Below are positions 2,437 through 36,720 of a DNA stretch of 42,735 nucleotides, piece after piece. Made by a program: the position numbers and the translations under genes. Origin of the DNA: Candidatus Uhrbacteria bacterium (GTDB lineage Bacteria > Patescibacteriota > Patescibacteriia > JACQRZ01); assembly GCA_016206145.1 (NCBI GenBank), contig JACQSA010000005.1, positions 1 through 42,735 of the forward strand, given 5' to 3'. How positions within the stretch are numbered: the first letter of the stretch is position 1; each line of letters opens with the position of its first letter. The notes under the pieces were generated by a model, which made no database searches, had not been told where the DNA came from, and worked only from the letters and a program-made list of their open reading frames with translations.

Positions 2437-3978
2437 ATGCGTGAACCAAAAAAACATCCGCCCGTTGTCCTGATTGTCCTTGATGGATGGGGACACAGAG
2501 ACGAGAAGGAACACAATGCAATTGCGCAGGCACGCACTCCTTTTCTTGATTCACTATACGCGAAGTATCCATATACGCTTCTTGATGCGAGCGGGCAAGC
2601 ACTCGGTTTACCGGAAGGACAGGCGGGTACGAGCGAGATAGGACATCTTACCATCGGAGCTGGCAGAGTGATCGATACTGATCTTGTGCGTATCACAGAA
2701 GCCATGCATAAAGGAGAATTTGAAACAAACCAGACGTTCAAAACTCTTTTTGACCATGTGGTATCCCACGACTCTACACTCCACATACTTGGATTGGTGA
2801 GTCCCGGAGGCATCCATAGCCATAGCTCTCACATTGAGGGTGTCTTGCATGCCGCAAAAAATGCAGGAGTAAAAAAAATCGCAATTCATGCATTCACTGA
2901 CGGTCGAGATACTCCTCCTCAAAGCGGAAAGCAGTACCTGCAGGAACTTGAATCCTTTCTGGAGGATTTGCAAATAGGTTTCATCGCCAGCATAAGCGGC
3001 AGATTTTATTCCATGGACCGTGATCATAATTGGCATCGCGTCGCAAAAGCAGAGGATGCGATCTTTCGAGCTACAAGCACGCATACGCATCAGGCCCGCC
3101 CATCTGAGGTCATTGATGTGCTTTATCGTCATGGCCATGTGGATGAGCATATTGAGCCCATCGTTTTTGTGGATGACGGAGGAAAAAGCTATCCGGTTGA
3201 AAAAAATGATGGCGCGATTTTTATCAATTTTCGCGCGGATCGCGCGCGCATGCTTTCCCGTAGATTCATTGATTGTCAGAAGGAAATGAACTTGTGTTTT
3301 GCCACCATGACCGAATATGAAAAAAACGGAGCATCACTTGTCGCGTTTCGCGGTATAGGAGTTGAAACGACACTTGCAGCTGAAATTTCGAAGGTCGGCT
3401 TGCGAAGCGTGCATATCGCGGAAACGGAAAAATATGCGCATGCCACGTATTTTCTTAATGGGGGGAAAGAAGAACCTCACGAGGAGGAGTCTCATGTATT
3501 GATCGAGAGCCGTAAAGACATACGGACGCATGATGAGGCGCCCGAGATGAAGGCTGCTGAAATTACTGACGCAGCGCTTGAGTACATCAACGAGGGTATA
3601 GATTTTATTTTTATCAATTACGCGAATGCCGACATGGTGGCTCACACTGCAAATTTTTCAGCAACCATACAGGCAGTCGAATGTATTGACGCTCAATTGC
3701 AACGGTTGGTGCCGTATGTACTTGGAAAGGGCGGCATCGTATGTATTACTGCTGATCATGGAAACGCCGAAGTTGGCATAGATCCTTCGTCGGGGATTTT
3801 ACATACCGCCCATACCACGCATAAAGTGCCCGCGATACTTACTATGGAGGGAGTTGTCCTTCGGAGCGGAGGCGGTCTTAGAGATATTGCCCCAACGATC
3901 CTGGATATTATGGGTATTCCCATACCTCCGAGCATGACAGGCGTATCGTTACTCGAATCATTATCCACTCGACAGTAA
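2437..3978 (+). CDS. gpmI: 2,3-bisphosphoglycerate-independent phosphoglycerate mutase
   Basis: PPVVLIVLDGWGHRDE, GTSEIGHLTIGAGR, GGIHSH, ADMVAHT and TADHGNAE motifs. The start is set at the ATG at 2437, 1 nt after the ppa stop. The track ORF from 2338 would overlap ppa by 98 nt. Confidence 0.9.
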   Translation: MREPKKHPPVVLIVLDGWGHRDEKEHNAIAQARTPFLDSLYAKYPYTLLDASGQALGLPEGQAGTSEIGHLTIGAGRVIDTDLVRITEAMHKGEFETNQTFKTLFDHVVSHDSTLHILGLVSPGGIHSHSSHIEGVLHAAKNAGVKKIAIHAFTDGRDTPPQSGKQYLQELESFLEDLQIGFIASISGRFYSMDRDHNWHRVAKAEDAIFRATSTHTHQARPSEVIDVLYRHGHVDEHIEPIVFVDDGGKSYPVEKNDGAIFINFRADRARMLSRRFIDCQKEMNLCFATMTEYEKNGASLVAFRGIGVETTLAAEISKVGLRSVHIAETEKYAHATYFLNGGKEEPHEEESHVLIESRKDIRTHDEAPEMKAAEITDAALEYINEGIDFIFINYANADMVAHTANFSATIQAVECIDAQLQRLVPYVLGKGGIVCITADHGNAEVGIDPSSGILHTAHTTHKVPAILTMEGVVLRSGGGLRDIAPTILDIMGIPIPPSMTGVSLLESLSTRQ

Positions 3979-4029: not shown

Positions 4030-5385
4030 ATGCAAGCAAAAAATATTTCGATATCATTCAGTGTGTTAATAGTAGCCCTTATTTTTGGGCTTTCTGTTTT
4101 TATGGTGTGGGCGCAAGAGGACTCTTTGTCCGAGAAGCCTAAGAAACCCGCGCTTGAGGAACAGAAGTTTGAGAAACCTATGCCCGTCGAGGAACCAAAA
4201 GGACAGGCTCAGGAACCTTCACCCGAGGAACCAAAAATGCAGAATGTAGACAAAAGGGAAATGAGCGATTTTCAGCGTGAGATGAAGGATCTTGTGCGCG
4301 AATCGAAAAAGCTCCTCGGAGATTTGAAAAAAGTGAAAGACTCTCAGGAGTGGCAGCAGACGATAAGTGAAATTATAAAAAATGCGTCAAGTTGCGCTTC
4401 TAAAGTGCTTACCCTTCCTGCCGAAGATCGCCGTTCGCACATTGATGACTGCCGAAGCGAAAGATATTGGGATTCAATGCAAGAAATTCGAGATGAATTT
4501 GTTCCACCGCAGGATATCAAGAATGCCATGAATGACGTAAAACGACAATTAAAGGAACTCGCAAACTATAAAAAACAGATTCTTAAAGCAGCAGCGGACA
4601 CGGATACAAGTAAAATTGATCAATTGGTATCTCAGATAAACGGACATAAAACGAACATTGAGTCTTCCAAAGGCAGGGACCAGAAGGATGCGTTACAAGA
4701 GTTTTGGGGAAATAATTATTGGGATGAGATCAATAAACTACGCGCTCAAGTAGAGCTTCCCAAGGAATTAAAACAGATTCTAAAAGAAATTGCGTTTGCT
4801 GAAAAAGATTCAAAAGCGCGAAATGTTCAAAAAGCCTTTGAATTTTTCGGATTGGATTATAGTCAGCTCGCAAAACTTGTTACTGCGAAGAAAGAAAGCA
4901 TTGCGCAGATTCAGTCGCTCGCAAACAACGGAGACTTTGAAGCCGCAAGTGAATTGATGCAAGAAAGCATCCATGAAGGGTGGCACCCCGGTGATTTGAG
5001 GCATTTTATGGGAATGATGAGAGAAACGCATGAACGCATGAAGAATATCAAGGACGATCAAATTCTTGAACAGATTCTTGCGATCATGGAGCCTATTGGA
5101 CAGAGTTTTATGGAGGAAGATGTGCGCGGCGCGCGGGATGCGATGGTAGAATTTACAGATCAAATGCGCAAGTACGAAAGCCTTTTCAGGCCATATTATC
5201 GAGGAGGTGTAAAGGAATTAAGCAAAAAGACTCTTGGCGCGCTTGATAAACTGGAAGGTCTTATTCAGAAAAAATTAGAAAAAGGAGAATTAAAGAAAAC
5301 GCCAGAGCCACAAGATAATGAGCCACAAAAAACAGAAAATGGCGGTGAGAACGTCCCATCTCCCGCGGTTGAACAGTCACTATAG
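4030..5385 (+). CDS. hypothetical membrane-anchored/secreted coiled-coil protein
   Basis: N-terminal hydrophobic helix (ISFSVLIVALIFGLSVFMVWA), then a Pro/Glu/Lys-rich spacer (PVEEPK...PEEPK) and long charged helical sequence. A strong terminator follows. Confidence 0.6.
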   Translation: MQAKNISISFSVLIVALIFGLSVFMVWAQEDSLSEKPKKPALEEQKFEKPMPVEEPKGQAQEPSPEEPKMQNVDKREMSDFQREMKDLVRESKKLLGDLKKVKDSQEWQQTISEIIKNASSCASKVLTLPAEDRRSHIDDCRSERYWDSMQEIRDEFVPPQDIKNAMNDVKRQLKELANYKKQILKAAADTDTSKIDQLVSQINGHKTNIESSKGRDQKDALQEFWGNNYWDEINKLRAQVELPKELKQILKEIAFAEKDSKARNVQKAFEFFGLDYSQLAKLVTAKKESIAQIQSLANNGDFEAASELMQESIHEGWHPGDLRHFMGMMRETHERMKNIKDDQILEQILAIMEPIGQSFMEEDVRGARDAMVEFTDQMRKYESLFRPYYRGGVKELSKKTLGALDKLEGLIQKKLEKGELKKTPEPQDNEPQKTENGGENVPSPAVEQSL

Positions 5386-7293: not shown

Positions 7294-7302
7294 TGGTATA
7301 CT
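7294..7302 (+). promoter_or_regulatory. extended -10 promoter element TGGTATACT
   Basis: TGnTATACT sits in the intergenic gap upstream of the ATG at 7348. Confidence 0.4.
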
Positions 7303-7347: not shown

Positions 7348-7668
7348 ATGAGCGCAAAAAGTTTTTTGAAAGGAGCCACTATCGGCGCGATAGTTGCATC
7401 AGTAGCAGCGCTATTGTGCGCCCCGCAGGCAGGGAAAAAATCCCGCAGAGAAGTGACAAAATTAGCAACCATGCTTGCAAAGAAAATTAGTGTGCAGGCC
7501 CGTTCTATGGAGAAATTGTCAAAACACGCCTATGAGGAATTGGTTACTCAATCGGTTACTGACTATGCGAAAGGCAAGACCGTTGCGAAAGAATATTATG
7601 ATGAAGTCGCAAAAATTTTAAAAAGCAATTGGAAAGAAATCAAAGAGGTGCTTCGCAAGAAAGAATAA
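7348..7668 (+). CDS. YtxH-domain protein
   Basis: N-terminal FLKGATIGAIVASVAALLCAPQAGKKSRREV followed by a charged helix, which is the typical YtxH layout. Confidence 0.7.
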   Translation: MSAKSFLKGATIGAIVASVAALLCAPQAGKKSRREVTKLATMLAKKISVQARSMEKLSKHAYEELVTQSVTDYAKGKTVAKEYYDEVAKILKSNWKEIKEVLRKKE

Positions 7669-7675
7669 TTTTTTT

Positions 7676-8104
7676 ATGGCGTATACTATCAAACGACAGA
7701 AAGATAATACGATTATCTCTGTCGATGCAGCAAAAGAAATAGATGCGTTTCTCGATGCGGCGCGAGGGCTGTATGCGAGTATGTATGATTTTGAAAAAAT
7801 ACGCGGCCGTACAGAGAGGGTAAAGATTGTGGTAGAAGGAAAATCTGTGGAAGATTTGCTCCGCGCATGGCTTCAAGAACTTTTAGACCGGCGTAGCATC
7901 CATGGGATTATCTACGGCAGCTTTTCAATCGTTTCCATTCAAAAAATCAGCAATACCCAATACCTTCTCACCGGATCTGCGCATGGAGAGGCGCATGACC
8001 CTCGCCTACATCCAATGATCAATGATCCGCACCTACTTCCCAAAAGTATTTCCTATAAGGGGAAAGATAAGAAATTTTCCTGCTCGTTTCAGATCACACA
8101 CTAG
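7676..8104 (+). CDS. archease-like protein (divergent)
   Basis: The archease-like pattern ...FLDAARGLYASM...VKIVVEGKSVEDLLRAWLQELL...GEAHDPRLH...SISYKG is present. However, the N-terminal HTAD metal motif reads NTII. Confidence 0.5.
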   Translation: MAYTIKRQKDNTIISVDAAKEIDAFLDAARGLYASMYDFEKIRGRTERVKIVVEGKSVEDLLRAWLQELLDRRSIHGIIYGSFSIVSIQKISNTQYLLTGSAHGEAHDPRLHPMINDPHLLPKSISYKGKDKKFSCSFQITH

Positions 8105-8106
8105 AC

Positions 8107-8592
8107 ATGACTCTCGAGTTGCTTACAAGAGTATTATTGATCTTGCTTGGCGCAGTTGTACTCAACGGCCTTGTCCGTTCCGGTATACGCCGCATCATGC
8201 GAGGTGGTAAAGGGGCTGAGCTCCGCATTCGGGGAGTTGCATTTTTTTTGGATCGGGCGAGTTCTGTTTTTTTTGCTGTCATAGCCATTATGATGGTCCT
8301 GGATTCATTTCGGATCGATACCCGGCCGCTTCTTACCGGAGTCGGAGTCGCAGGATTATTTGCAACGTTCGCTTCTCAAGCGATTTTGAAAGATGTGTTC
8401 AGTGGAATTTTTGTTTTTTTTGAGGATCTTTATGAGGAAGGAGACCGCATCGCGCTTGATGACACAAAGGGAGTAGTGCAACGCCTTACATTGCGTAAAA
8501 CAGTCCTTAAGGACCGCACAGGGAGACTTCATCACATTCCTCATGGGGGCGTAAAAATTGTCACTGTGGAAGCAAAACGCCGCACGGTATGA
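8107..8592 (+). CDS. short MscS-family mechanosensitive channel-like protein
   Basis: Pore helix plus beta-domain pattern: GVGVAGLFATFASQAILKDVFSGIFVFFEDLYEEGDRIALDDTKGVVQRLTLRKTVLKDRTGRLHHIPHG. At 161 aa it lacks the usual C-terminal domain. Confidence 0.65.
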   Translation: MTLELLTRVLLILLGAVVLNGLVRSGIRRIMRGGKGAELRIRGVAFFLDRASSVFFAVIAIMMVLDSFRIDTRPLLTGVGVAGLFATFASQAILKDVFSGIFVFFEDLYEEGDRIALDDTKGVVQRLTLRKTVLKDRTGRLHHIPHGGVKIVTVEAKRRTV

Positions 8593-10070
8593 CAGAGCGC
8601 ACTTTTAAACGTTTTTTGGAGATTATCCCAGGCCTTCTTGTCTGGGTGACTTTTTTTCTGGGCATTTTTTTCTCTTTTTTGAAGCCAGTGTGGGTGATGT
8701 ACTTTATTATTTTGTTTGATTTATATTGGCTTTTCAGAGTTTTTTATTTCATTATTTTTCTCATTCTTTCTTGGAGGCACTATACACGGGCGCAGAGGAG
8801 AGACTGGCAAAGTGAGCTTACTTCACAGCCTGCATGGCGATCGTATTATCATTTGATTTTTTTGCCAATGTATCGGGAGTCGTACGATATTGTACAAAGC
8901 ACATGCGACGCGCTTTTGCGCACAGAATATCCTAAAGATCGGTTTATCATCATATTGGCGGGCGAGGAACGGGCAGGAGAACATTTCATCAGCATTGCAA
9001 AGAGAATACAAGCCGAATACAAGGATTCTTTTTTTAAACTCCTTATTACTGTCCATCCGAAGGACTTGGAAGGGGAGATTGCTGCAAAGGGTGCGAATAT
9101 TCACTATGCGGGCATGCGAGCGCAGGAGTTGATTGATCAGCTTGGCATACCGTATGAACATATTATCGTGTCTACCTTTGATATTGATACGATTGCGCAT
9201 CCTCACTATTTTGCGTGCCTTGCATATACATATATTACTCATCCCACTCCTACGCGATCGAGCTATCAGCCGGTAGTGTTGTATAATAATACGATTTGGG
9301 AAACATCTCCTGCCATGCGTTTGGCAGCGTTTAGCACTACATTTTGGCTTTTGACAGAACTTGCGCGTCCTGATCGTCTATTCACTTTTTCCTCGCATAG
9401 CATGAGCTTTCGTGCGCTCGTCGATGTGGGGTTTTGGCAGAAAGATATTGTCAGCGAGGACTCTCGAATTTTTTTCCAGTGTTTTACCCACTATGATGGG
9501 GATTACACGGTTACTCCGATTTATATCCCATTATCCATGGATACGGTAAGCGGGAACTCTTTGCGCGAAGGATTGTGGAATCTCTATCAACAGCAGAGAA
9601 GATGGGCATGGGGCGTTGAGCATTTTCCGTATCTCGTCATGAAGTTCTTGCACAATCCGCGCATATCCCTAAGAAAAAAATGCAAAACGCTTCTTGTTCA
9701 GATTGAGGGAATGTACACATGGGCGACTGCTCCGATTATCATTTTTTTTCTTGGGAGGCTTCCATTGTTTTTTGTAGGAGAACACGAGCGGTTTACCGTG
9801 CTTGCTCAGAACACGCCTCTTCTCCTTGAATTTCTCTTAAATCTCAGCATGGGAGGAATTTTGCTGATCGGAATTCTTTCCTTTTTTCTTCTTCCGAAAC
9901 GCCCTTTTGCGATTCCGCGTTTTCGCGTCCTTACAATGATTTTTCAATGGGCATTGCTCCCCATCTCTTTGATTTTTTTCAGCTGCATACCGGCAATTGA
10001 CGCGCAGACACGATTAATGCTGGGAAAATATCTTGGATTTACTGTTACAGAAAAACTGCGAAAAGCATAG
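8589..10070 (+). CDS. membrane-embedded processive family-2 glycosyltransferase (cellulose/PNAG-synthase-like)
   Basis: N- and C-terminal TM helices surround a GT-A core with DxD-like STFDIDT, SEDSRIF (TED-like) and QQQRRWAWG (QxxRW). ATGA overlap with the upstream gene. Confidence 0.75.
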   Translation: MTERTFKRFLEIIPGLLVWVTFFLGIFFSFLKPVWVMYFIILFDLYWLFRVFYFIIFLILSWRHYTRAQRRDWQSELTSQPAWRSYYHLIFLPMYRESYDIVQSTCDALLRTEYPKDRFIIILAGEERAGEHFISIAKRIQAEYKDSFFKLLITVHPKDLEGEIAAKGANIHYAGMRAQELIDQLGIPYEHIIVSTFDIDTIAHPHYFACLAYTYITHPTPTRSSYQPVVLYNNTIWETSPAMRLAAFSTTFWLLTELARPDRLFTFSSHSMSFRALVDVGFWQKDIVSEDSRIFFQCFTHYDGDYTVTPIYIPLSMDTVSGNSLREGLWNLYQQQRRWAWGVEHFPYLVMKFLHNPRISLRKKCKTLLVQIEGMYTWATAPIIIFFLGRLPLFFVGEHERFTVLAQNTPLLLEFLLNLSMGGILLIGILSFFLLPKRPFAIPRFRVLTMIFQWALLPISLIFFSCIPAIDAQTRLMLGKYLGFTVTEKLRKA

Positions 10071-10098
10071 ACCCTTTGCAAAATAACATTATGTATTT

Positions 10099-10220
10099 CT
10101 TCCGGCTCCTTTCTGCCCAATTTCACCCGGAAATTGCGCTGAACTCCTCAAAATATCTCGATATTCCTCCTCATTCATCATCAATTTCCGGACAAAATCT
10201 GATCAGGAATGACCGGGAAG
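10099..10220 (-). ncRNA. candidate structured RNA, copy A (unclassified family; paralog at 36760-36882)
   Basis: Three helices are shared with copy B: an outer CTTCCGG/CCGGGAAG helix; helix 2 at 10125-10136 with 10182-10193; and a hairpin at 10050-10067 style position (10150-10167). Helices 2 and 3 differ from copy B by compensatory changes. Helix-end A-C mismatches on the + strand become G-U pairs on the - strand. Confidence 0.45.
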
Positions 10221-10239
10221 CTATTTTGAAAAAGGTCAT

Positions 10240-11229
10240 ATGAAGAGCCATTCCGTCGTCATTAGCCTTGTGGTATACAACGGCGAACCCTATCTTAAGA
10301 AATGCTTGGAGAGTATACACGCTCAAATCTATACTGATTACTCGCTTGTAATCGTAGACAATGCTTCCATAGATAATTCTCGAGAGCTGATACGGCAGTA
10401 TGGAGCACGTGCAACCGTGATTTTTCAAAACGAGAATATCGGTTTTTCGCGTGCGCATAATCATGTAATTCGCGCCAGTAATTCGGATTTTATTTTTATA
10501 CTCAATCAGGACTGCGTGCTTTCACCTGACTATATTGAGAGGTGTGTTGCGGTACTCAAAGAAGGTGATATGCGCGCAAGTGTTACCGGCAGTTTGGTGA
10601 GGATAGATCGGTTGACCAATTTGTCTGGGAATGGTATGATAGACACCCTCGGGTTATGCATTCATCGCACATTTCACATCGCAAATATCGGATCAGGGCT
10701 TCCGATAGAACGGATTCCCAAACGCCCGTTTCAGGTCTTTGGGGTGAGCGCGACGGCTGCGCTCTATCGTCGAAAATCGCTTGCGGATGTGGCGCACCAT
10801 GCAACCCAGGAAGAATATTTTGATGAAGATTTTTTTATGTATAAGGAAGATGTAGACCTCGCGTTTCGGCTTCACCACGGAGGTTTTAGTTCGTGGTGTG
10901 AGCCGCGCGCGCGCGGATATCATGTGCGTTCGACCGAATCCAGGCTTTTTGTCCGCGCAAATCCATTTATCAATACGCGGTCGTATCAAAACCATCTACT
11001 TTTTTTAATGAAGAATATGACGTGGCCTCTTATGTGGAGATACGGTTTATTTATTGTGCTTTATGAAATTGCAAAAATATGCTATCTGGCGGTATGGGAG
11101 CCATCAACACTTCAAACCCTTTCGAGTGCATGGAAACTGCGGCACAAGATGAAGCGCAAACGGCCGCATAACGCACGGTACGCACACCCGCTTTCATTCG
11201 GATGTAAAGCTTTTCCTCATGCAAATTGA
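10240..11229 (+). CDS. family-2 glycosyltransferase
   Basis: VVISLVVYNGEPYLKKCLESIHAQ...IVDNASIDNS...NIGFSRAHN...DEDFFMYKEDVDLAFR is a typical GT2 (rhamnosyltransferase-like) core. Confidence 0.8.
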   Translation: MKSHSVVISLVVYNGEPYLKKCLESIHAQIYTDYSLVIVDNASIDNSRELIRQYGARATVIFQNENIGFSRAHNHVIRASNSDFIFILNQDCVLSPDYIERCVAVLKEGDMRASVTGSLVRIDRLTNLSGNGMIDTLGLCIHRTFHIANIGSGLPIERIPKRPFQVFGVSATAALYRRKSLADVAHHATQEEYFDEDFFMYKEDVDLAFRLHHGGFSSWCEPRARGYHVRSTESRLFVRANPFINTRSYQNHLLFLMKNMTWPLMWRYGLFIVLYEIAKICYLAVWEPSTLQTLSSAWKLRHKMKRKRPHNARYAHPLSFGCKAFPHAN

Positions 11230-12028
11230 CGTTTCTATTGTTCTTGTGAATTACTGTGCGCGGGGATTGGTGCGCGAGTGTATCAAGGGGCTAAAGCGGC
11301 TTACTACAAATCTTAGGTTGGAGATCATTGTTGTTGACAATAGCAACGATAAGCAACTTGCGGATTTATTAGCTGAACGGTTTGGTGACGTGAAGTATAT
11401 TCCCATGCAGACGAATGTGGGATTTGCCCGCGCGAATAATATGGGAATCAGCCACTCGGGCGGGAAATACATCCTCATTCTCAATTATGATATCACGCCG
11501 CTTCCCGACTCCCTCGACACGCTGGTATCTTATATGGATGTACATCCTCAGACAGGGATCGTAGGCCCGCAGCTTCTCAACCCCGACGGCACAACACAAA
11601 ATTCCTGCTATCGTTTTCATTCTCTTGTGACGCCATTTTTGCGCAGGACATGGTTTGGAAAAATATGGAAAGGAAAAAGACATATTGATCGTTTCTTGAT
11701 GCGCGACACTCTCATTGGTCAACCGACTGACGTAGATTGGTTATTGGGAGCCTGCCTGCTCGTGCGCGCATCATGCATTGCGGATGTGGGGTTGATGGAT
11801 GAGCGGTTTTTCCTGTATTTTGAAGATACGGACTGGTGCAGGCGTTTTTGGGATGCGGGCTATAAGGTCAAATATGTCCCGGACGCGAAGATGATCCATT
11901 TGCACAGGCGAGATTCGGCACAGGGCGGCGCTCTTGCGGTTATTTTTCATTCATCAACCCGTATCCATATCGCGAGTTGGATCAAATATATTCTTAAGTG
12001 GAGAAACAATGGAAAACACATTGCATGA
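11219..12028 (+). CDS. family-2 glycosyltransferase
   Basis: VSIVLVNY...IIVVDNSNDKQ...NVGFARANN...DERFFLYFEDTDWCRR. It overlaps the upstream GT2 gene by 11 nt. Confidence 0.8.
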   Translation: MQIDVSIVLVNYCARGLVRECIKGLKRLTTNLRLEIIVVDNSNDKQLADLLAERFGDVKYIPMQTNVGFARANNMGISHSGGKYILILNYDITPLPDSLDTLVSYMDVHPQTGIVGPQLLNPDGTTQNSCYRFHSLVTPFLRRTWFGKIWKGKRHIDRFLMRDTLIGQPTDVDWLLGACLLVRASCIADVGLMDERFFLYFEDTDWCRRFWDAGYKVKYVPDAKMIHLHRRDSAQGGALAVIFHSSTRIHIASWIKYILKWRNNGKHIA

Positions 12029-13886
12029 ATCACGAGGAGAGGCATTGAAGGGTTTTTTCATTTTATTTTTTCTTGTGGTGGTAGGAGGAGGAGTTCTTCT
12101 TGCGTTTCAGACATGGAAGACCGTTGGCAAAATCGAAGTGCTTGGAGTGTCTGCGTACACGCATCTCTCACACGCAGCCGAGGAATTTGTGCCGGAAAAT
12201 TTCACATTGGCAAAGCAAGAATTGGAAGGAGCAAAACATGATATTGATGAAATTGTACGTTTGCTTGGAGGCGTATCGTATTTGCGATATGTGCCATTTT
12301 GGTCTTCACGATATGAATCACTGTATTCTTTTTCGCGTATTGTACAGCAGTTTATTGATACCGGCGTACAACTTTCAAGCCTTGTTGAGCATATTTCAGA
12401 GCCGATACGCGCCACTGACGGGACCATTACTATCACGCGAATGTCAGATGAGGATAAGCGAGTGGTACTCGAAAGGACTGTGCAATCAATTCCTCGTTTG
12501 CAAAGTATGCGTGCGACATTACAAATTCTTGGTAGCACATTGCGCGGTATTTCTGACGATGCCTTGGAAAAAGTTCTTGTTCCTATTAAAAGCGATCTGC
12601 TCGCGAAGGGAGATTATATTACTTACACCATAGATCAAGCGCTTCCTCTTCTTGAAGTGATTCCACTTTTTGTGGGATACAACAAAGAAAAAGAGTATCT
12701 CTTGCTTCTTCAAGATCCGACAGAATTGAGGCCGACAGGAGGTTTAATCGAGATGTACTCCCTCCTTCGTGTAAAGGATGCGGCAATTCTCTCTCTTCGT
12801 TCTGAAAAAACATACGGTGACATACGAGGATCCGGATTTGCAAGATTGCCCGCACTTGCGGAATTTACCGCGCAAGAAATTCCAGGGGGATTTTTGCAAG
12901 ACACAAATTGGCAAAGCGATTTTTCTAAAAGCGCACAGCACGCCGTAGAGGCATTCCGTAGCGCAGAGGGCGGCGATATTGACGGCGTGATTGGTGTGAC
13001 GCCCGAATTCTTTATCTCACTCCTTCGCATGACAGGAGATATCCGCATTGGAGATACAGTGTGGTCAAGTACGCGCTTTATTGATGAGCTCCATGGCCAA
13101 CTTGCAAGCGGGTCGCCTCCTCTTGGAAAACTTACTCGAGCCATTATTGATGCAGTCAACGGTATGAAATTTCAAAAGATTTACGACGTGACCAAACTCG
13201 TGGAAGCTCGCTTGAATGAAAAGCATATTCTGTTATGGTTTTCAGATCCGAAACTGAATGAATTTGCAAAATCGAACAACTGGACAGGTGAGATACGCGC
13301 CACTGGCGGGGATTTTATGATGATTACTGATGGCAATGTAGGGAGTAAAAAGACAGATCCGTTTATCCAGCGCACTGTCACAAGGGATATTGTGGAAGAT
13401 GAACTTGATAATCTTACTGTGTCACTTGAAATCCTCTACCGTAATAATGCCACTATTACCCCCTCCACGGACCGCTATCGCGACCATATAGAAGTGATAG
13501 TCCCGGAAGGGAGTCAGCTGCTTCGATCGGTTGGATTCCGAAAGAATGATGAGGGACGCGAAGAAGGACAGGTGGATGTACGCGATGCGCAAGGATATAC
13601 TGTGTTTGAGGGATTTACTGTGGTGGAGCCTTTTCAAAACCAGAAGATTCAGCTAGAGTACCGATTGCCAAAACGCCTTGCGAAAAAAATTTTGAATAAG
13701 GGAACGTATTCGTTTTTTGTCCAAAAACAGCCAGGGTCTATGCAAAATCTTACGGCGACATTTTTTTTCAAAAAACCGGTTAAAAGTTTTACAAACGGCG
13801 GATTCTTTACTCAGAAGGCCGGGGGTGCCGGAGTTCAATTTCAAACAGATTTGCGCGTTGACCGAGAATTTCATATTCAGTTTTGA
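12009..13886 (+). CDS. DUF4012-domain envelope protein
   Basis: N-terminal TM (FFILFFLVVVGGGVLLAF) and the DUF4012-like core YLLLLQDPTELRPTGGLI. The start is moved to the ATG at 12009 (MENTLHE); the upstream part of the track ORF overlaps the GT2 gene. Confidence 0.7.
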   Translation: MENTLHESRGEALKGFFILFFLVVVGGGVLLAFQTWKTVGKIEVLGVSAYTHLSHAAEEFVPENFTLAKQELEGAKHDIDEIVRLLGGVSYLRYVPFWSSRYESLYSFSRIVQQFIDTGVQLSSLVEHISEPIRATDGTITITRMSDEDKRVVLERTVQSIPRLQSMRATLQILGSTLRGISDDALEKVLVPIKSDLLAKGDYITYTIDQALPLLEVIPLFVGYNKEKEYLLLLQDPTELRPTGGLIEMYSLLRVKDAAILSLRSEKTYGDIRGSGFARLPALAEFTAQEIPGGFLQDTNWQSDFSKSAQHAVEAFRSAEGGDIDGVIGVTPEFFISLLRMTGDIRIGDTVWSSTRFIDELHGQLASGSPPLGKLTRAIIDAVNGMKFQKIYDVTKLVEARLNEKHILLWFSDPKLNEFAKSNNWTGEIRATGGDFMMITDGNVGSKKTDPFIQRTVTRDIVEDELDNLTVSLEILYRNNATITPSTDRYRDHIEVIVPEGSQLLRSVGFRKNDEGREEGQVDVRDAQGYTVFEGFTVVEPFQNQKIQLEYRLPKRLAKKILNKGTYSFFVQKQPGSMQNLTATFFFKKPVKSFTNGGFFTQKAGGAGVQFQTDLRVDREFHIQF

Positions 13887-13898
13887 TTCTTACCACAC

Positions 13899-14909
13899 AT
13901 GTTTGCAAAAAAGGTTGGCATAGATTTAGGCACAACGAACGTCTTAGTGCATATTCCAAAAAAGGGGATCGTTATCAACGAGCCTTCTGTTGTTGCTATT
14001 TCCACTATTGATCGTAAAGTACTGGCGGTCGGGAGGGATGCCAAGGAAATGTTGGGCCGCACACCGGACACAATCGTTGCGTATCGTCCCCTCAAAGATG
14101 GCGTGATTGCCGATTACCGCACCACAGAGGCAATGCTTCGATATTTTATTAACAAGGCAATTGGGGGAGTGCGTCTTTTTCGGCCAGAGGTGATGGTGGC
14201 AGTGCCTGCGGGGATAACTTCTACAGAACGAAGAGCTGTCATTGACGCAACTCTTGCCGCCGGAGCAAAGGCCGCCTATATCATCAAAGAACCGATTGCC
14301 GCAGCGATTGGCGCAAATATCCCGATTGGAAATGCATCCGGACACATGATTATGGATATCGGCGGCGGCACTTCCGAAATTGCAGTCATATCTTTGGGAG
14401 GTATTGTTGCTTCGTCTTCTGTGCGCATCGGAGGAAATAAATTTGACCTTGGAATTGTTGAGCATATTCGCAAGAAATTTGGTCTTGCCATTGGTGATCG
14501 TACTGCAGAAGAAGTGAAGATCACTATAGGATCTGCGTTGTATCTCGAAGAAAAACTTAGTATGGAGGTGAGAGGTCGTGATAATGTTACGGGATTGCCA
14601 AAGACTATTTCTATCACTTCAGATGATGTGACAGACGCTGTTTCCAATGAGCTTGATGGTATTATTTCCGCCCTTAAAGGTGTATTGCAAAATACTCCGC
14701 CAGAACTTGCGGCTGATATTATTGATCGAGGTATTATTATGTCAGGAGGCACGTGTCTTTTACGTAATTTTGACCAGCTTGTTGCACGCGCTACGGGTAT
14801 CCCTGCATACGTCGCGGATCAGGCATTATTGTGTGTCGCAAAAGGCACTGGCATTGTCCTTGAGAATCTCGATGCGTACAAGAGAAGTATTTTAGCGACC
14901 AAGTCGTAA
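13899..14909 (+). CDS. mreB: rod-shape-determining actin homolog MreB
   Basis: VGIDLGTTNVLV, DGVIADY, EPIAAAIGA, DIGGGTSEIAVISLGG and IIMSGGTCLLRNFD. Confidence 0.92.
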   Translation: MFAKKVGIDLGTTNVLVHIPKKGIVINEPSVVAISTIDRKVLAVGRDAKEMLGRTPDTIVAYRPLKDGVIADYRTTEAMLRYFINKAIGGVRLFRPEVMVAVPAGITSTERRAVIDATLAAGAKAAYIIKEPIAAAIGANIPIGNASGHMIMDIGGGTSEIAVISLGGIVASSSVRIGGNKFDLGIVEHIRKKFGLAIGDRTAEEVKITIGSALYLEEKLSMEVRGRDNVTGLPKTISITSDDVTDAVSNELDGIISALKGVLQNTPPELAADIIDRGIIMSGGTCLLRNFDQLVARATGIPAYVADQALLCVAKGTGIVLENLDAYKRSILATKS

Positions 14910-14935
14910 TGCGTCGTTTTTTATACAAATGCGTA

Positions 14936-14965
14936 TTGACAGCAAGTTTATCTTAGGATAAACTT
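14936..14965 (+). promoter_or_regulatory. sigma70-type promoter with overlapping palindromic operator (TA operon)
   Basis: TTGACA (14936-14941), a 17-nt spacer, then TAAACT (14959-14964). A perfect 9-bp palindrome, AAGTTTATC-TTAG-GATAAACTT (14944-14965), spans the spacer and the -10. This layout is typical of antitoxin autoregulation. Confidence 0.6.
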
Positions 14966-14993
14966 AGCGGCAATAAGGCATCATAAGAATGGT

Positions 14994-15209
14994 ATGAAAA
15001 ATATCGTTGGACTCAAGGAATTACGCGAAAATATGGATACCTATGCCTCACGTGTCAGGAGAGGGGAATCTTTTGTAGTTGTAAGGAAATCAAAACCTCT
15101 TTTTAGTATTAATCCCGTAGAGATCGAGGAGATGTGGGAGACTATTATTGATTTTTCGAAGATCAAGAAGGGAGGGGTGCGAATTGAAGATATACTGAAA
15201 AAGCTCTAG
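14994..15209 (+). CDS. type II antitoxin, Phd/YefM-like
   Basis: 71 aa. The N-terminus VGLKELRENMDTYASRVRRGESFVVVRKSKPLF matches the Phd/YefM pattern, and the gene sits 8 nt upstream of a RelE-like gene. Confidence 0.75.
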   Translation: MKNIVGLKELRENMDTYASRVRRGESFVVVRKSKPLFSINPVEIEEMWETIIDFSKIKKGGVRIEDILKKL

Positions 15210-15216
15210 CCCTTCT

Positions 15217-15459
15217 ATGGATAAGATACAAAAAGCCCTGCGTAAACTCAGTGATACACAGAGAGCTTTTGTGAAAGAAATCCTTGATAAGCTTCACGCA
15301 AACAAGACCCAAGGACTTGATATCGCAAAACTGAAAGACCATTACAATATCTATCGGGTTCGTAAAGGTAGAGTAAGAATTATATTTCGTATTGAAAATA
15401 CTACGATCTATTTATTAAAAATAGATCGTCGGAGCGACACTACCTATAACAAATTTTGA
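15217..15459 (+). CDS. type II toxin, RelE/ParE superfamily
   Basis: 80 aa. ...YRVRKGRVRIIFRIENTTIYLLKIDRRSDTY is the characteristic RelE/ParE C-terminal strand pattern. Confidence 0.7.
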   Translation: MDKIQKALRKLSDTQRAFVKEILDKLHANKTQGLDIAKLKDHYNIYRVRKGRVRIIFRIENTTIYLLKIDRRSDTTYNKF

Positions 15460-15465
15460 GAAATT

Positions 15466-15495
15466 GAGTCTATAGAAAATTGATTCTACAGACTC
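15466..15495. repeat. intergenic hairpin repeat, family H, copy 1
   Basis: GAGTCTATAGAA-AATTGA-TTCTACAGACTC forms a 12-bp stem with one A-C mismatch (G-U on the - strand). The arms match the hairpin at 33537-33570 and the inverted-repeat arms at 36721-36745 and 36884-36908. Confidence 0.6.
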
Positions 15496-15614
15496 CCTTC
15501 CGAGGTGTCAAAGGCGGCAATTGAGGGATCGAGTCCTTAGAATAAAGATTTGCACTGTGTGCAAATTATGCGAAAGCCACACCACTTTGAAGTAAGATGT
15601 GTTCACACATTATT

Positions 15615-15643
15615 TTGACAGAACGAATAATCGCATGTACTAT
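15615..15643 (+). promoter_or_regulatory. sigma70-type promoter for the MNT-HEPN operon
   Basis: TTGACA (15615-15620), a 17-nt spacer, then TACTAT (15638-15643), ending 25 nt upstream of the ATG at 15668. Confidence 0.5.
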
Positions 15644-15667
15644 TGAGTACGTAAGAAATTTACTTCT

Positions 15668-16003
15668 ATGCTTCAAAAAAATCGTAAAAAAATTGAAAAG
15701 ATTACAAAAAAAATTATTGCACAGTATAAACCCGAAAAGATCGTTTTGTTTGGCTCTTATGCATGGGGCGCGCCTCAGATAGACAGTGATGTTGATTTGC
15801 TGGTGATTAAAAATACGAACGCATCTCTTCTTGATCGTGAGAGAGAACTCAGAACAATCTTATGGGGAAGTGGATCTCCTACAGATTTACTTATATATAC
15901 CCCAAGTGAACTTAAGCGGAGTATGACTATTAAAAATAATTTGTTTATCAAAGATATCGTTGCACGAGGTTTGACATTATATGCAAAGAACCCAGTACGT
16001 TGA
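15668..16003 (+). CDS. minimal nucleotidyltransferase (MNT), putative type VII antitoxin
   Basis: LFGSYAWGAPQIDSDVDLLV is the GS-x-G...DxD pol-beta-fold NTase motif. 111 aa, overlapping the downstream HEPN gene by 23 nt. Confidence 0.8.
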   Translation: MLQKNRKKIEKITKKIIAQYKPEKIVLFGSYAWGAPQIDSDVDLLVIKNTNASLLDRERELRTILWGSGSPTDLLIYTPSELKRSMTIKNNLFIKDIVARGLTLYAKNPVR

Positions 16004-16367
16004 CCTTTGGATTATTCGTGCTTCTGAGGATATTGATGCAGCCGAAGCCCTACTAGAAGCAGGAGGTCCATGGAATCCAATTTGTTTTCACGCACAACAA
16101 GCTGCGGAGAAATATCTCAAGGCTTTCCTTGCTTTCCATAATAAAAACGTCGGTAAAATTCATCAGCTTGATTCCCTTGCTTCCGATTGCGAGTTGATTG
16201 ATAAAGAATTTATCACATTGCGTGAAGATGCAATTCATCTCACACATTTTTATATCAGCACTCGTTATCCTGCCGATATTCCAACCTACGGTAAAACTGA
16301 CGCGAAACATGCGCTTGAGGCCGCAAGAAGAATAAGTGAATTCGTAAGCAAGAAGATTGTGAAGTAG
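15981..16367 (+). CDS. HEPN-domain protein, putative toxin partner of MNT
   Basis: Helical 128-aa protein with AQQAAEKYLKAFL and YISTRYP motifs of the PF05168-type HEPN domain. A clear Rx4-6H RNase motif is not evident. Confidence 0.75.
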   Translation: MQRTQYVDLWIIRASEDIDAAEALLEAGGPWNPICFHAQQAAEKYLKAFLAFHNKNVGKIHQLDSLASDCELIDKEFITLREDAIHLTHFYISTRYPADIPTYGKTDAKHALEAARRISEFVSKKIVK

Positions 16368-16389
16368 ATAAGATGTATACTTACTTCAC

Positions 16390-17511
16390 ATGACCATCGG
16401 CATTGACGCATCCCGAGCGTTTCGGGGAAAAAAGACGGGTACTGAATGGTATTCGTATCATGTGATACAAGAGATTGTCCGACAAAACCAGTCTGATTTG
16501 ATTGTATTATATGTCGATCGAAAAGTTACTTCAGAGGAGATCGGATTTGATATCCCACAATCGGTAAAAATCAAGTACCTTGGTTGGCCCATAAGAAGAT
16601 TGTGGACTCAAGGAAGATTATCACTTGAGATGTTGATCCATTCCCCAGATGTACTTTTTGTACCTTCGCATGCGATCCCATTGATTCATCCAAAAAAAAC
16701 AGTTACGACGATTCACGATGTCGGTTTTTTACAATACCCGGAATCATATTCGCAAAAGGATTTACGCTATCTCCAGTGGTCTACTCAGTACGCGGTGGAG
16801 AACGCATCATCTCTGATAACAGTTTCCGAATTTAGCAAACGCGAGCTCATTTCTCATTACCGTGCATCGCAACAAAAGATTCATGTAATACACCTTGGGT
16901 ATGACGAAGACATATATCATCCTTACCCGCAAGATGAGATTTTGCCAGTGCAAAAGAAATATCATCTCCATACTCCATACCTTCTGTGTATCGCGCGTCT
17001 AGAATCACGGAAAAATATCCCATTTTTTATTGACGTCTTTGATGTCATGAAAGAAAATGGATACGCAGGCGAGTTTGTATTGATTGGACAAGAAGGATAT
17101 GACGCGAAAAAGATTCTTAATCGCATCAAGGCAAGCCCCTTCGCATCGTCAATTCACTATCTTGGCTGGATCGAGGAAAAAGAAAAAGCCACTCTTCTTT
17201 CAGGCGCCGATTGTCTTGTATTCCCAAGTCTCTACGAAGGATTCGGTCTACCATTATTAGAAGCTCAAGGATGTGGCATACCGGTGATCACATCAAATAC
17301 AACCTCTCTTCCTGAAGTAGGCGGGGATGGCGCGTTGTATTGTAATCCTACTGTTATCTCTGAATGGGTGGAGAAGTTTCAGAACATAATGGCAGATGCA
17401 GATCTAAAAGACAGTATGCGGCAAAAAGGGTTTGAAAATATAAAACGTTTTTCTTGGCAGGAGACAGCCGCACAAACGCTGAAAATTATAGTCATGAATT
17501 TGTATGCGTAA
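16390..17511 (+). CDS. family-4 (GT-B) glycosyltransferase
   Basis: C-terminal EGFGLPLLEAQGCGIPVITSNTTSLPEVGGDGALY is the E-x7-E GT4 signature region. TATACT at 16376-16381 lies 8 nt before the ATG. Confidence 0.85.
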   Translation: MTIGIDASRAFRGKKTGTEWYSYHVIQEIVRQNQSDLIVLYVDRKVTSEEIGFDIPQSVKIKYLGWPIRRLWTQGRLSLEMLIHSPDVLFVPSHAIPLIHPKKTVTTIHDVGFLQYPESYSQKDLRYLQWSTQYAVENASSLITVSEFSKRELISHYRASQQKIHVIHLGYDEDIYHPYPQDEILPVQKKYHLHTPYLLCIARLESRKNIPFFIDVFDVMKENGYAGEFVLIGQEGYDAKKILNRIKASPFASSIHYLGWIEEKEKATLLSGADCLVFPSLYEGFGLPLLEAQGCGIPVITSNTTSLPEVGGDGALYCNPTVISEWVEKFQNIMADADLKDSMRQKGFENIKRFSWQETAAQTLKIIVMNLYA

Positions 17512-20500
17512 AGAAGTAAAACCATCATCGCAAGATGTAATAGCTGAGACTTTTCATCGTGCGGAGCGTGTACAGTATTCACCAGCTTTTTCGCAGGAGA
17601 TAGTTACGCGACTCAAGCCCAGAGAGAACGAACAAACGAACGAATATATTCATCGTTTGCTCTCAGGCAAAGATCGCAACACTTTTGCAATTGCACCAGA
17701 GGTACGAGTCTTCCTTGCTGACCTTGCGTCGAAAGGCGATATGGTGCCGCGGCAAGAATTGGAAGCGTTTCTTCTTGCGTTAGCTGCCACGCCAAAACCT
17801 GCGGATCAAGTGAAGCTTCTTGATCGATCAAAGAATTTTTTAGATGCAGAGACTCTGAAGAGAAAAAGACATGAATGGAGTCGGTATTTTTTGAATCAAT
17901 TCGTTCTTGAAACTGTTGAACCGCAAGCAGCGCTCTTTGAGTATTATGGCAACCTCACGCCAGAAGAACGCAAATCACTCGGCGCTAAAATCGAACAATC
18001 GCTTGAAACGGCGCAAAAAAAAGAGTATGCACGCGATGGTACGCTACTCCTGTATAAAAGCATGACACTAGAAGAAAGATTTCGGTACCAGCATTATATT
18101 GATCGCACCCTAGAGATAGTATTAGAATCGTTTCGATTTGACTTTGTTCAAAATACGGCTCTACTCTTGTTTGATTTTTTTAAAAGTTTGAGATCTGAAG
18201 AATTTGCTCATTATCAGGAACCATTTCGTGAATTCATAGAAAAACTTCGACGAAGTAAGAACCACGGACTTTTACTTCAGAACATAGGGGAATTGTCTAG
18301 GGAAATACGGGAAGAACACGCTGATAGTATTCAATGGGCATTTGATCAAGATGAATTAGATGGAGCGATTCCATCCGTGATTATATACTATGCATCTTTG
18401 CCTCCCGCAGAGAGAAAGGGGCATCAAAATGCAATCCAATCAGCTCTCCAGCGTCATATTGCAATGGGAGATTATGTCACTGTGTTGAAATTCTGTTCAA
18501 CGCTTTCTGCCGAAGAGAGACCATTGTGTGCCGACATCATAGAAGCATCTGTGGAGTATATATATGAGTATTCTGACGATAATCCCAAATCTAGTTATGA
18601 GATATTGCTTGAGTATTATGCACATTCTTCACCAGACGTACGCGCTAGCGGGCAATCTCGTATTGATGAAATTTTCTCTATGCCACATACGGGGCGATAC
18701 CCTAGAGTGAATATTAGAGCATTGTTTCAATTTCTTGCCGAAATTCCTTCCGAAGAACGAAGTGTCAAGTACATGGATCGCATGAAGATCGTTCTTTCTT
18801 CGTATCTTAGTAACGGCAAGCAGGATGACGATGCTCCTTTATTCGCTTTTCTCGCATCGCTTACCTCTCAGGAGCGGACGGAATTGAGTGAGCCTATATC
18901 TGGTATTATTCGCCAAGAGCTTAGATCGAATGTTGGCTTTGGAAAGTTCGCCCGACTTTGTGGCGCACTCGGTGTAGAGGATCGCGAATTGTTATCTCCT
19001 GATATGCCAAGCCGGATCCCGCATGCGCTCGCAAGCGAATGCGGTAACCTCGAACTCAAGGAATATTATTTGAAAGAGCTCTGTAAGTATGTGATATTGC
19101 ATAATGAATCGCTGCTCGCGCTTGACCTGCTCATGCGCCCTCGAAAGGCAATCGCGCTGACGCTAGGTTTGCAAGCTCTTGAGGTTACAGACCCATTACC
19201 CGCATTGAGTTGGGATTTGTCATCACAGCAACGCGAAACACTTCTCCTTTCTTTTAAAGAGTTGATTGACAGCAATAACCTTTCGGTTAATTCCATCGGT
19301 CGTCTTTCCTTGCCATATCGACCACGCGGTCGGCAAGGAAAGGGATTTGAGGATCATTTGGTTAGATGGTTTACAACGCTTCGATTCTTTTACTCGCTAC
19401 CGGTCGACATCGGTCCGAATATAGCAAGTGCACATATAAGAAAATTTCGCGACATTGTTGAACAATCAGATCCATCTCTTCGCAGTCATGTTTTTTTACG
19501 GCAAATACTTAAAGAAATACGAGCATTACAATCTCGCATCCCCGATATTTTAAAAGACGCTATAGACAGCCCTGATCTTTCATCTGATGATATTATGAAT
19601 TTTTTCGAACGCTGGAACAATGATGTCGCGTCAATACTGGTGTATGCTTCTCGCGTGCAAAAAGAGGGCAGCAACCAGGAGGATACGCACGTTTCCAAAA
19701 ATTTGCTAGCAGAGATAATACATGGAGAGGTCAATAATGATTTTTTTGATCGGCGATACGATCTCAAAGACCCGCTGGTCAGAAAGCAGCTCAAACCGCT
19801 TATTGGCGGCTTGCCAAAAGTTAAAGCAAAGGAAGTTCTCACGGCATATCACGAAGGCGCTCGATTTTTACATAACGCAGAAGGAGAGCAAGAGGGAGGT
19901 GGAGTCTTTGACCTCCCGATTCCATTACCCCAACACGTCATAGATCATCTCGCTGAACAAATTTTTCTCGACCGTCATGTACACGAGCTTTTTAAACTCC
20001 CTGCCTTTTCCGGTCTCACTCGTGCAGAATGGACGCGTGCTACACAATTTGGGTTTGGGTTCTTTCGTCGAGGAGGCGAACCATGGGAAGAAGTCTACAC
20101 AAAGCCCACTGAATTCAGAAAACGCTATGACGGTAAGGTACCCAGTGAGTATATTGAGGCTTTCATTTCCCTTCATCAATTTTTTGGAGATGTATGCAAA
20201 GGAAGGAAACCACCTTCAAAGTTATTAAAAAAGTTTGAAATTTTTGCGCAAAAATTTCCTAAGGATCTTATTGCGAGTGGTGTCATGCAAGGTGACATAT
20301 TTTCGTACTTACAAGCAGAGCTTACTGCACTCCAAATTCCTCGATCTCGTGAGGCTCAAGCGAGAAGAGCACTCCTCATCCATACTACTGATCATCCAAA
20401 GACGCTTCTTGAGATCGGGAAATACCCTGCAAATACAGGCTCTTGTCAAAGTTATGATTATCCGAGTTTTACACTCGCACAGTGTCTTTTGGGATACGTA

Positions 20501-33577: not shown

Positions 33578-33611
33578 AAAAAATCTCCTTCGATTTGGAG
33601 GGGATTTTTTT
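33578..33611. terminator. candidate bidirectional terminator between convergent rplL and the 774-aa gene
   Basis: AAAAAATCTCC-TTCGATTT-GGAGGGGATTTTTTT. The GC core is only 4 bp, with a 3-nt bulge and A/T extensions. T-runs are present on both strands. Confidence 0.4.
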
Positions 33612-36695: not shown

Positions 36696-36720
36696 CGACA
36701 TATTTTCCTGATGTGCTATA

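Follow-up and report, generated by a model that had tools for sequence, protein, structure and literature searches.

Two stretches of the window (the whole 42,735-nt stretch of DNA analysed) belong to a repeat family that is present in many copies, is absent from orthologous sites and has no ORF or promoter of its own. The strand required to pair is the G-rich strand, which is the minus strand of the window. With a probability of about two in three, these repeats form a new Candidatus Uhrbacteria family of small, non-coding, non-autonomous mobile elements resembling REPINs or palindromic MITEs, which would be moved in trans via the folded G-rich strand. The mobility proposed here is read from the outcome of insertion (filled and empty sites), not from observed movement. 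The hosts of the repeat are tiny groundwater bacteria; Patescibacteria have very small, streamlined genomes, and a literature search found no paper on such MITE- or REPIN-like repeats in Patescibacteria or the candidate phyla radiation.

Extent, architecture and copies of the repeat

A sequence-only reading of the window had described two diverged copies of a ~122-nt element and proposed it as a candidate structured RNA. The two window copies are real: positions 10099-10220 can be aligned over their full length with 36760-36882, with a mean column identity of 84% (20-nt flanks included), and every conserved block named in that reading is present. The length, however, was underestimated, and many further copies lie elsewhere. 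Alignment of 13-20 copies with their flanks moves the left end of the unit outward by ~30 nt and the right end by ~20 nt, giving a unit of ~175 nt. Copy A occupies 10067-10239 on the minus strand (173 nt, terminal subtype 2: ATAGACCCTTTGCAAAATA ... TATTTTGAAAAAGGTCAT), and copy B occupies 36728-36901, also on the minus strand (174 nt, terminal subtype 1: TGAGACTGTAGAAAAATA ... TATTTTTCTACAATCTCA). Over the full unit the two are 67% identical. Covariance-model matches on the minus strand score 167.7 bits for copy A and 189.3 bits for copy B, and neither nhmmer nor the covariance model finds a third copy within the 42,735-nt window.

Each copy is an imperfect palindrome over its whole length. 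The architecture, from the outside in, can be read as a 17-bp terminal helix, two invariant inverted blocks of ~15 nt with fixed mismatches, a long spacer helix in which all change is compensatory, and a small apical hairpin. The 17-bp terminal helix (P1) is found in every copy. Its left arm lies at 10070-10085 in copy A, pairing with 10222-10237, and at 36729-36745 in copy B, pairing with 36884-36900; in copy B the palindrome continues to 36721-36908. Between P1 and P2, one arm only carries an unpaired bulge of 13-17 nt (36746-36759 in copy B, TCAGGTGTTACTTT on the plus strand), whose length is conserved across the copy alignment and whose sequence is conserved only in part. The portion of copy A noticed earlier (10099-10220, minus strand) holds P2 (outer CTTCCGG/CCGGGAAG), the long P3, the internal loop and the apical hairpin P4, and the corresponding portion of copy B (36760-36882, minus strand) is likewise the inner part of the full unit.

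The ends of the unit are inverted termini (e.g. TGAGACTGTAGAAAAATA ... TATTTTTCTACAGTCTCA) and vary more than the interior across copies. At least five terminal versions exist (GAGACTGTAG, AGACCCTTTGC, AGAGACCTCTGC, AGAGCCCATCA and GAGACTGCAGCG), each matched at the opposite end of its own copy, so that the two ends covary. Ends that covary and are less conserved than the interior are unlike the transposase-binding ends of a classical MITE, a point counted against the mobile reading.

Invariant stretches are found only internally (TCTTCCGGCTCCTTTC and GACCNGGAAGCT). Core block 1 reads CTTCCGGCTCCTTT on the plus strand and AAAGGAGCCGGAAG on the folded strand; it lies at 10099-10112 in copy A and recurs at 36760-36773 in copy B, and none of the 17 full copies departs from it. 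Core block 2, GACCNGGAAGCT, lies at 10211-10222 in copy A, with the same block at 36873-36884 in copy B. The outer helix noted earlier, CTTCCGG/CCNGGAAG, is present and equally invariant (17/17 full copies). The 17 full copies sharing these blocks come from at least five assemblies. The blocks stand ~97 nt apart as measured on the copies. Block 2 repeats block 1 imperfectly in inverted orientation, the pairing between them being broken by fixed mismatches and a single bulged base. Because the core-block pairs never vary, the blocks are conserved as sequence, beyond the needs of the helix.

Two scans looked for further copies. The pattern CGGCTCCTTTN{1,4}GCCCAATTT, run over one genome per species, gave 21 loci, 10 of them from the single assembly JACPHV01; the remaining 11 are unrelated chance matches, a number close to the ~17 expected beforehand from the 19 specified bases and the size of the collection. 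The second scan covered metagenome contigs and required the two invariant blocks at fixed spacing. At least 11 full copies come from the MAG JACPHV01 (Candidatus Uhrbacteria), together with 4 that are internally deleted, and 6 more come from three metagenome assemblies (on L024, L038 with two, L041, L043 and L044/L045). None of these loci belongs to the window's own genome. A covariance-model search confirmed 18 full or end-truncated copies and recovered three of the four internally deleted ones; the fourth (L018:2105-2165) comes from nhmmer and direct reading. The internally deleted copies measure 48-106 nt, retain both ends and have lost the core. Viral contigs, phage records and plasmid records gave no matches. 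The search for homologs in relatives that the sequence-only reading had called for has in this way supplied many further copies.

Some of these copies are close to those of the window. Copy A is 89% identical to the copy in L019, and copy B is 88% identical to the copy in L002 and 87-88% identical to several copies of the MAG. Between the window's genome and the MAG, MreB is 94% identical as protein and only 28% identical at four-fold sites, which amounts to saturation. Since the element is near-identical while four-fold sites are saturated, either the family passes from lineage to lineage or strong element-level selection maintains it. Near-identity across synonymously saturated lineages points to active spread, probably with horizontal transfer, and also to a mobilising enzyme.

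Filled and empty sites, neighbours and landing preference

Evidence for insertion comes from orthologous sites. At site A, the window and its relatives share the neighbourhood YtxH, archease, MscS, 493-aa glycosyltransferase, GT2, GT2 and DUF4012, and the GT2 protein of the relatives is 72%, 68% and 59% identical to that of the window. In L048-L051 and L059 the site is empty: the 493-aa gene and GT2 share an ATGA overlap, leaving no intergenic DNA. The window has 173 nt between AAAAGC and ATGAAG. The site is also empty in the syntenic JACPHV locus (L017, corresponding to window 7348-17511). Copy A has separated two formerly overlapping glycosyltransferase genes. The TAG stop codon of the 493-aa glycosyltransferase gene (10068-10070, plus strand) falls inside its left end, the GT2 start codon (10240-10242, plus strand) follows immediately after its right end, and its last bases, GAAAAAGG, give GT2 a Shine-Dalgarno-like sequence (AAAGG). 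A subtype-2 copy in L019 shows the identical arrangement of stop, element and ATG, there ahead of dnaX.

Site B is empty in L054/55, L057 and L058. The bPH-like protein of its relatives is 90%, 80% and 76% identical to that of the window, and their intergenic gap is just 22-60 nt. This gap includes an extended -10 box (TGGTATAAT, TGGTATACT or TGGTAGAAT) homologous to TGCTATAGT of the window, and the same box stands at the homologous position in the element-less loci L054, L056, L057 and L058. In the window it belongs to a native sigma-70-type promoter of the bPH-like/DivIC operon (36695-36722, plus strand; GCGACA, 16 nt, TG-n-TATAGT), with the -35 element GCGACA placed at 36695 by a promoter scan. 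The promoter lies outside the element, and copy B starts 5 nt past its -10 hexamer. Because it is conserved in relatives without the element, TGCTATAGT is native rather than element-borne. The promoter-like sequence at 36714 had been taken as an argument for a 5' leader; it is indeed present, but as the promoter of the operon. Copy B sits at about +1 of the bPH-like/DivIC operon, adding a hairpin of ~174 nt at the start of the transcript.

A third site, at the ytxH promoter, shows the reverse distribution. It is filled in JACPHV (L017:14-194), where the copy begins 2 nt after TGGTATAGT, and empty in the window (TGGTATACT at 7294) and in L049, with the promoter retained. As orthologous sites are empty in these three cases, the copies are taken as lineage-specific insertions. 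It also follows from the absence of copies at orthologous sites that no copy is needed by its neighbours.

Three further comparisons were set aside. The 188-nt gap of L056 at site B, considered as a decayed copy, has no significant similarity and no palindrome. L024 does not form a filled/empty pair with the window, its 493-aa neighbour being an unrelated flippase and not the window's glycosyltransferase, and L019/L052 do not form one either, the neighbour in L019 being dnaX and not GT2.

Filled/empty comparisons and a listing of flanks reveal no consistent direct repeat flanking the copies. The two bases beyond GAGAC/GTCTC mostly continue the palindrome. The flank data fit either no duplication or a 2-bp AT/TA duplication, which, AT and TA being self-complementary, would look the same as a continuation of the palindrome.

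The sequence just beyond the ends is AT-rich. In 11 of 20 copies a TAnnnT hexamer lies 0-3 nt from the left end (p about 1e-9), and in 5 of 20 one lies 0-3 nt from the right end (p about 0.004), compared with 5.5% for positions chosen at random within these loci. A full extended -10 box with TG lies 2-9 nt upstream of copy B and of the copies in L017, L005 and L002; for two of these (window B and L017) an ancestral extended -10 promoter was verified 2-5 nt upstream. In L018 the -10 arrangement is at the opposite end, ahead of wecG. New copies would target promoter-proximal AT-rich DNA, often 0-9 nt past a -10-like TAnnnT hexamer, and landing just past -10 hexamers would leave many copies at the start of a 5' UTR or between cistrons.

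The genes flanking the copies are unrelated, housekeeping genes with nothing in common. They include dnaX, clpB, wecG, mgsA, a NUDIX protein, a Xer-like recombinase, an M23 peptidase, gltX and a TrmB-type regulator; a surface protein, ornithine/aspartate carbamoyltransferase, an ABC ATPase, a pilus ATPase, ftsH, thyX and glyA; and a type IV coupling protein, an RRM protein and a sigma factor. This range bears on the suggestion, left open in the sequence-only reading, of a plus-strand cis-regulatory leader (riboswitch or attenuator) for envelope genes. Both window copies do lie directly upstream of plus-strand genes, and copy B follows a promoter. Yet the orthologous genes of relatives lack the element, other copies sit by dnaX, clpB, ftsH, thyX and glyA or between convergent genes, and the plus strand folds worse than the antisense strand, so that a leader tied to envelope genes is highly improbable. 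The accompanying question of whether copies always precede envelope genes is answered in the negative by the same neighbours.

Copies occupy co-directional, convergent and divergent gaps in both orientations, with a modest orientation bias. In ~13 of the 17 full copies the better-folding strand is antisense to the left-flank gene, and in 15 of 21 copies it is the strand whose flanks have a negative GC skew. The bias could reflect the mode of insertion, or the loss of copies that put the tighter hairpin in mRNA. This placement of the folded strand is the reverse of what the IS200/IS605 model predicts.

The folded strand and what it may encode

The consensus structure, built on the 17 full copies with RNAalifold, is an unbranched hairpin of 59 pairs at -61.8 kcal/mol on the minus strand, compared with 46 pairs and -15.5 kcal/mol on the plus strand. 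In the minus-strand structure 94.7% of cells are standard pairs and 27 of the 59 pairs show compensatory changes. None of 500 column shuffles matched the real alignment on any of five measures, and sliding the partners by 1-3 columns lowers pairing to 38-54%. Helix 1 (the terminal P1) contributes 14 pairs, 9 of them with compensatory changes, across the five terminal subtypes. Between copies A and B, four helix 2 positions differ on both sides (CCGGAAATTG/CAATTTCCGG vs CCAAAAAG/CTTTTTGG), and the apical hairpin is built from different bases (AATAT..ATATT vs AGAATAC..GTATTCT), both as first described. The covariation noticed in two copies extends across the family.

The preference for the minus strand, first seen as A-C mismatches on the plus strand that become G-U on the other, also holds in the larger set. 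At paired positions the minus strand has 92 G-U cells at 24 positions vs 5 A-C cells at 4, a contrast inflated somewhat by choosing the structure on the strand where G-U pairs. The energies of individual copies and the plus-strand consensus are independent of that choice. All 17 copies fold 10-26 kcal/mol better on the minus than on the plus strand. Copy A, whose folded, G-rich strand is the minus strand of the window, reaches -58.8 kcal/mol over 10064-10243 (z = -3.7), and copy B -76.3 kcal/mol over 36721-36908 (z = -10). Plus-strand folds of the copies range from -43 to -75 kcal/mol, with the window copies at -43 to -50. The plus strand of the window has a GC skew of +0.065, and the elements are C-rich on it (-0.21 and -0.29). 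Mutation bias was considered as a source of the G-U asymmetry and rejected, as deamination bias of the leading or coding strand would produce an asymmetry in the other direction. Tolerance of G-U fits RNA at least as well as DNA, and it was counted against the mobile reading.

The main rival is a family of minus-strand small RNA genes. Each copy would encode a rod-like RNA of ~175 nt, antisense to the 5' end or junction of its neighbours, with a protein-binding loop, and the genes would have spread by duplication or transposition. The strand asymmetry just described, the sequence-invariant asymmetric UCA/GGAG internal loop and covariation over the whole length are all in its favour, as is the lack of a match to any known family. 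Across the whole window, Rfam 15 at gathering thresholds returns only 3 tRNAs, and relaxing the filters over both copies gives a best match of 22 bits, against thresholds of 60-100; the earlier failure to recognise an RNA family agrees with this. The signals expected around an RNA gene are less favourable. No promoter is predicted on either strand inside either window copy, no terminator lies downstream of the hairpin on the minus strand, and the sequences past the element ends have nothing conserved in common. Copies are found either way round, in gaps that are convergent, divergent or intra-operon, internally deleted copies without a core persist, and orthologous sites lack copies. Because G-U tolerance and a sequence-conserved loop are expected of RNA, this reading retains some probability, though it is unlikely. 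What stood of the structured-RNA proposal is a conserved, covarying and minus-biased structure; a discrete RNA gene of 122 nt did not. Strong covariation is in itself no proof of a functional RNA, because mobile palindromes of the REPIN type also preserve helices. The opposing case raised at the outset, a MITE conserved as DNA with no helix preservation, was likewise right in one half: the family behaves like a MITE or REPIN, but its helices are preserved.

A small protein gene or type I toxin-antitoxin locus is scarcely credible. Each window copy does contain short ORFs on its two strands. Their length is nonetheless unconserved, the minus-strand ORF ranging from 4 to >40 codons and missing in two copies, and the start of the plus-strand ATGACC ORF is AGG in two copies. 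A 1-nt indel shifts the invariant block into different frames in copies A and B, amino-acid identity is as predicted from 84% DNA identity, and the peptides are not hydrophobic.

Integron attC sites form cassette arrays and have RYYYAAC/GTTRRRY core sites, with intI nearby. The repeats were rejected as such sites: the window copies are 26 kb apart and the others are on many contigs, not in arrays, the ends are GAGAC/GTCTC-like, and the window has no integrase.

Use of the plus strand by the host deserves separate consideration. A mobile element could have been co-opted as an mRNA terminator or attenuator, an RNase III site, a stabiliser, or a mask of the ribosome-binding site through the anti-Shine-Dalgarno-like CUCCUUUC. 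Such use would explain why copies persist beside promoters and in intercistronic gaps. Copy B begins close to +1 of a native promoter; copy A and the L019 copy provide a stop codon and the Shine-Dalgarno-like AAAGG and abut an ATG; the plus-strand P2-P4 hairpin is followed by CUAUUUUU; and the plus strand still folds, at the energies given above. Correia/nemis and ERIC elements have effects of this kind. Set against this, the structure is optimised on the opposite strand, the affected genes share nothing, and close relatives function without the insert. Co-option fits the mobile-element explanation as a secondary effect and leaves the conservation unexplained, and as an explanation in its own right it is unlikely. 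Both window copies are expected to be passively co-transcribed as a weaker-folding plus-strand RNA, and any effects on expression would be a by-product of insertion rather than the cause of conservation.

Mobilisation and comparison with known systems

For the preferred explanation, a non-autonomous mobile element, copying would take place in trans by an enzyme encoded elsewhere. This enzyme would recognise the invariant asymmetric core in the folded single-stranded G-rich strand, and the substrate is most likely single-stranded DNA rather than RNA, as with RAYT or IS200-type HUH/Y1 enzymes. The window and the ~40 ORFs adjacent to copies (~70 kb of the MAG inspected) yielded no transposase, HUH/Y1 or reverse-transcriptase gene, and no Y1_Tnp domain was found in those ~40 ORFs. 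The ~200 kb of sequence retrieved contains no full-length insertion sequence with the same ends. The only candidate mobiliser beside copies, a Xer-like tyrosine recombinase close to two of them on L022, was rejected as most likely housekeeping. The lack of a clear target-site duplication and of a mobilising gene near the copies was counted against the mobile reading.

A more specific version of the mechanism is speculative and rather improbable. The invariant loop would be read in the folded single strand, and insertion would take place into the template strand at melted promoter DNA near the -10 hexamer. Targeting of melted promoters would explain at once the adjacency to -10 hexamers, the apparent lack of a target duplication and the position of the folded strand antisense to the promoter. 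In a variant of this idea, the folded strand could be RNA, a mobile antisense regulator of transcription start regions. If true, targeting of melted promoters would be a mode undescribed for bacterial transposons and would imply an undescribed enzyme of Patescibacteria.

The family also matters beyond its mechanism. By landing at -10 boxes and between coupled genes, the repeat can rewire expression in hosts with few regulators. And as mobile palindromes covary well, RNA-motif screens in these genomes need a check of copy number and empty sites first.

The closest known relatives in form are REPINs, which have been described mainly in Pseudomonas and enterobacteria. REPINs are symmetrical, palindromic, non-coding units of ~100 nt or more, doublets of REP sequences that are predicted to form hairpins in ssDNA or mRNA and are mobilised by RAYT (HUH/Y1) transposases (PMC3116915). 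Within each unit two 16-mers in inverted orientation are invariant, and the less conserved spacer between them often shows compensatory changes (PMC3116915; Bertels and Rainey 2011). Their mobilisation is proposed to proceed via a single-copy HUH/Y1 transposase acting on the folded single strand, and in the GI REPIN 71 bp separate the first bases of the two 16-mers (PMC3116915). The Uhrbacteria element shares the inverted invariant blocks, the compensatory spacer, extragenic dispersal, a predicted hairpin and non-autonomy. A REP is a short imperfect palindrome with a conserved 5' GTAG, and a RAYT gene is usually single-copy and flanked by the repeats. The Uhrbacteria block CTTCCGGCTCCTTT is no REP, in that it has no internal palindrome and no preceding GTAG; GTAG occurs in the element only at the subtype-1 and subtype-5 termini. 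The element adds a covarying 17-bp terminal helix and a one-sided bulge of 13-17 nt, the unit is longer (~175 nt) with its blocks ~97 nt apart rather than 71 bp, the host is a Patescibacterium, and no RAYT gene is present among the ~40 ORFs next to the copies.

Correia/nemis elements (Neisseria) and ERIC elements (enterobacteria) are multi-copy imperfect palindromes of 100-170 bp with inverted ends and intergenic positions. They often lie in transcription units and near promoter elements, where they are co-transcribed as long hairpins. The Uhrbacteria element is likewise a multi-copy intergenic palindrome with inverted ends, found near promoters. In Correia elements the 26-bp ends are well conserved and a TA duplication is present. 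The Uhrbacteria element has, by comparison with that description, variable and covarying ends around an invariant interior, strongly strand-asymmetric pairing and no evident duplication. With classical MITEs, which are mobilised by a DDE transposase that binds their ends, it shares small size, non-coding and multi-copy character, terminal inverted repeats and presence/absence polymorphism. It differs from them in that its ends covary around a fixed interior, which is atypical, and in that no clear duplication is seen.

IS200/IS605 elements, which move by a single-strand 'peel and paste' mechanism, and their non-autonomous derivatives (palindrome-associated transposable elements) lack terminal inverted repeats and carry a different subterminal hairpin at each end. 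They use a fixed target of 4-5 nt directly 5' of the left end, and have their active strand on the lagging-strand template. The derivatives resemble the Uhrbacteria repeat in strand-specific folding, in the lack of a clear target duplication and in a target signal mainly on one flank. The repeat differs in being a whole-length palindrome with inverted termini, its target preference is a degenerate TAnnnT or AT-rich sequence, and its folded strand lies mostly on the opposite strand.

Distribution of element copies across loci and assemblies

The ~175-nt imperfect-palindrome element is locally clustered in the JACPHV01 metagenome-assembled genome (MAG), where four copies, one full and three with both ends kept and the interior lost, lie within 6 kb of one contig (JACPHV010000032.1; L018:2105–7827) and surround clpB, wecG, a TsaB-like gene, and mgsA. 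Within one divergent promoter region, a pair of these copies is in opposite orientation. This interval is a local hot spot for element copies.

Three contigs or fetched loci start within a copy (L001, 1–87; L003, 1–137; L038, 1–125), which suggests that the element breaks short-read assemblies; MAG copy counts may be too low. Two other loci (L054, 1–98; L055, 1–100) start ~100 nt 5′ of the bPH-like gene but lack the element, and are no evidence of such breakage.

At L043, a copy (2541–2721) is flanked on one side by an ORF of unknown function and on the other by a gene for a VirD4/TraG-like type IV coupling protein, and is oriented opposite to both. This copy may reside on a conjugative element, a location that, if true, would offer a route for horizontal spread. 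At L022 (2638–5078), two copies, including the most diverged of all those found, flank a XerC/D-like tyrosine recombinase gene (2950–3936, minus strand). No other recombinase gene was seen adjoining element copies, and this one probably encodes the housekeeping Xer protein.

Promoter architecture of the clade

The extended −10 box TGnTAtAaT is well conserved in the clade's promoters, as compared across window positions 7294–7302 (the ytxH promoter) and 36714–36722 (the bPH-like/DivIC operon), and loci L049, L054, L056, L057, and L058. These boxes are still alignable among relatives despite otherwise diverged intergenic DNA. The 5′ UTRs are short (22–45 nt), with little or no Shine–Dalgarno sequence. 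In a more distant relative (L056; protein 66% identical), the orthologous counterpart of site B, the copy-bearing gap upstream of the bPH-like gene, is a 188-nt gap (2313–2500) 3′ of the same −10 box, containing no palindrome and bearing no detectable relationship to the element.

Other coding features of the window

Four sizeable ORFs matched no Pfam family at the thresholds applied: those of 451 aa (4030–5385), 1154 aa (17504–20968), and 213 aa (36054–36695) on the plus strand, and one of 774 aa (33610–35934) on the minus strand. A 1771-aa alpha-2-macroglobulin-like protein (26194–31509, plus strand) has Big_5, MG2, A2M_BRD, and A2M domains, with a HINT/PT-HINT domain at residues ~1001–1128, between the bait-region and A2M domains; this segment is possibly an intein or an intein-like insertion of the bacterial type.

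On the plus strand at 15668–16367, a small gene matching the NTP_transf_2/Pol-beta nucleotidyltransferase domain (15668–16003) is overlapped by a 128-aa ORF (15981–16367), a candidate partner judged by layout, and the arrangement is that of an MNT/HEPN-type toxin–antitoxin pair.
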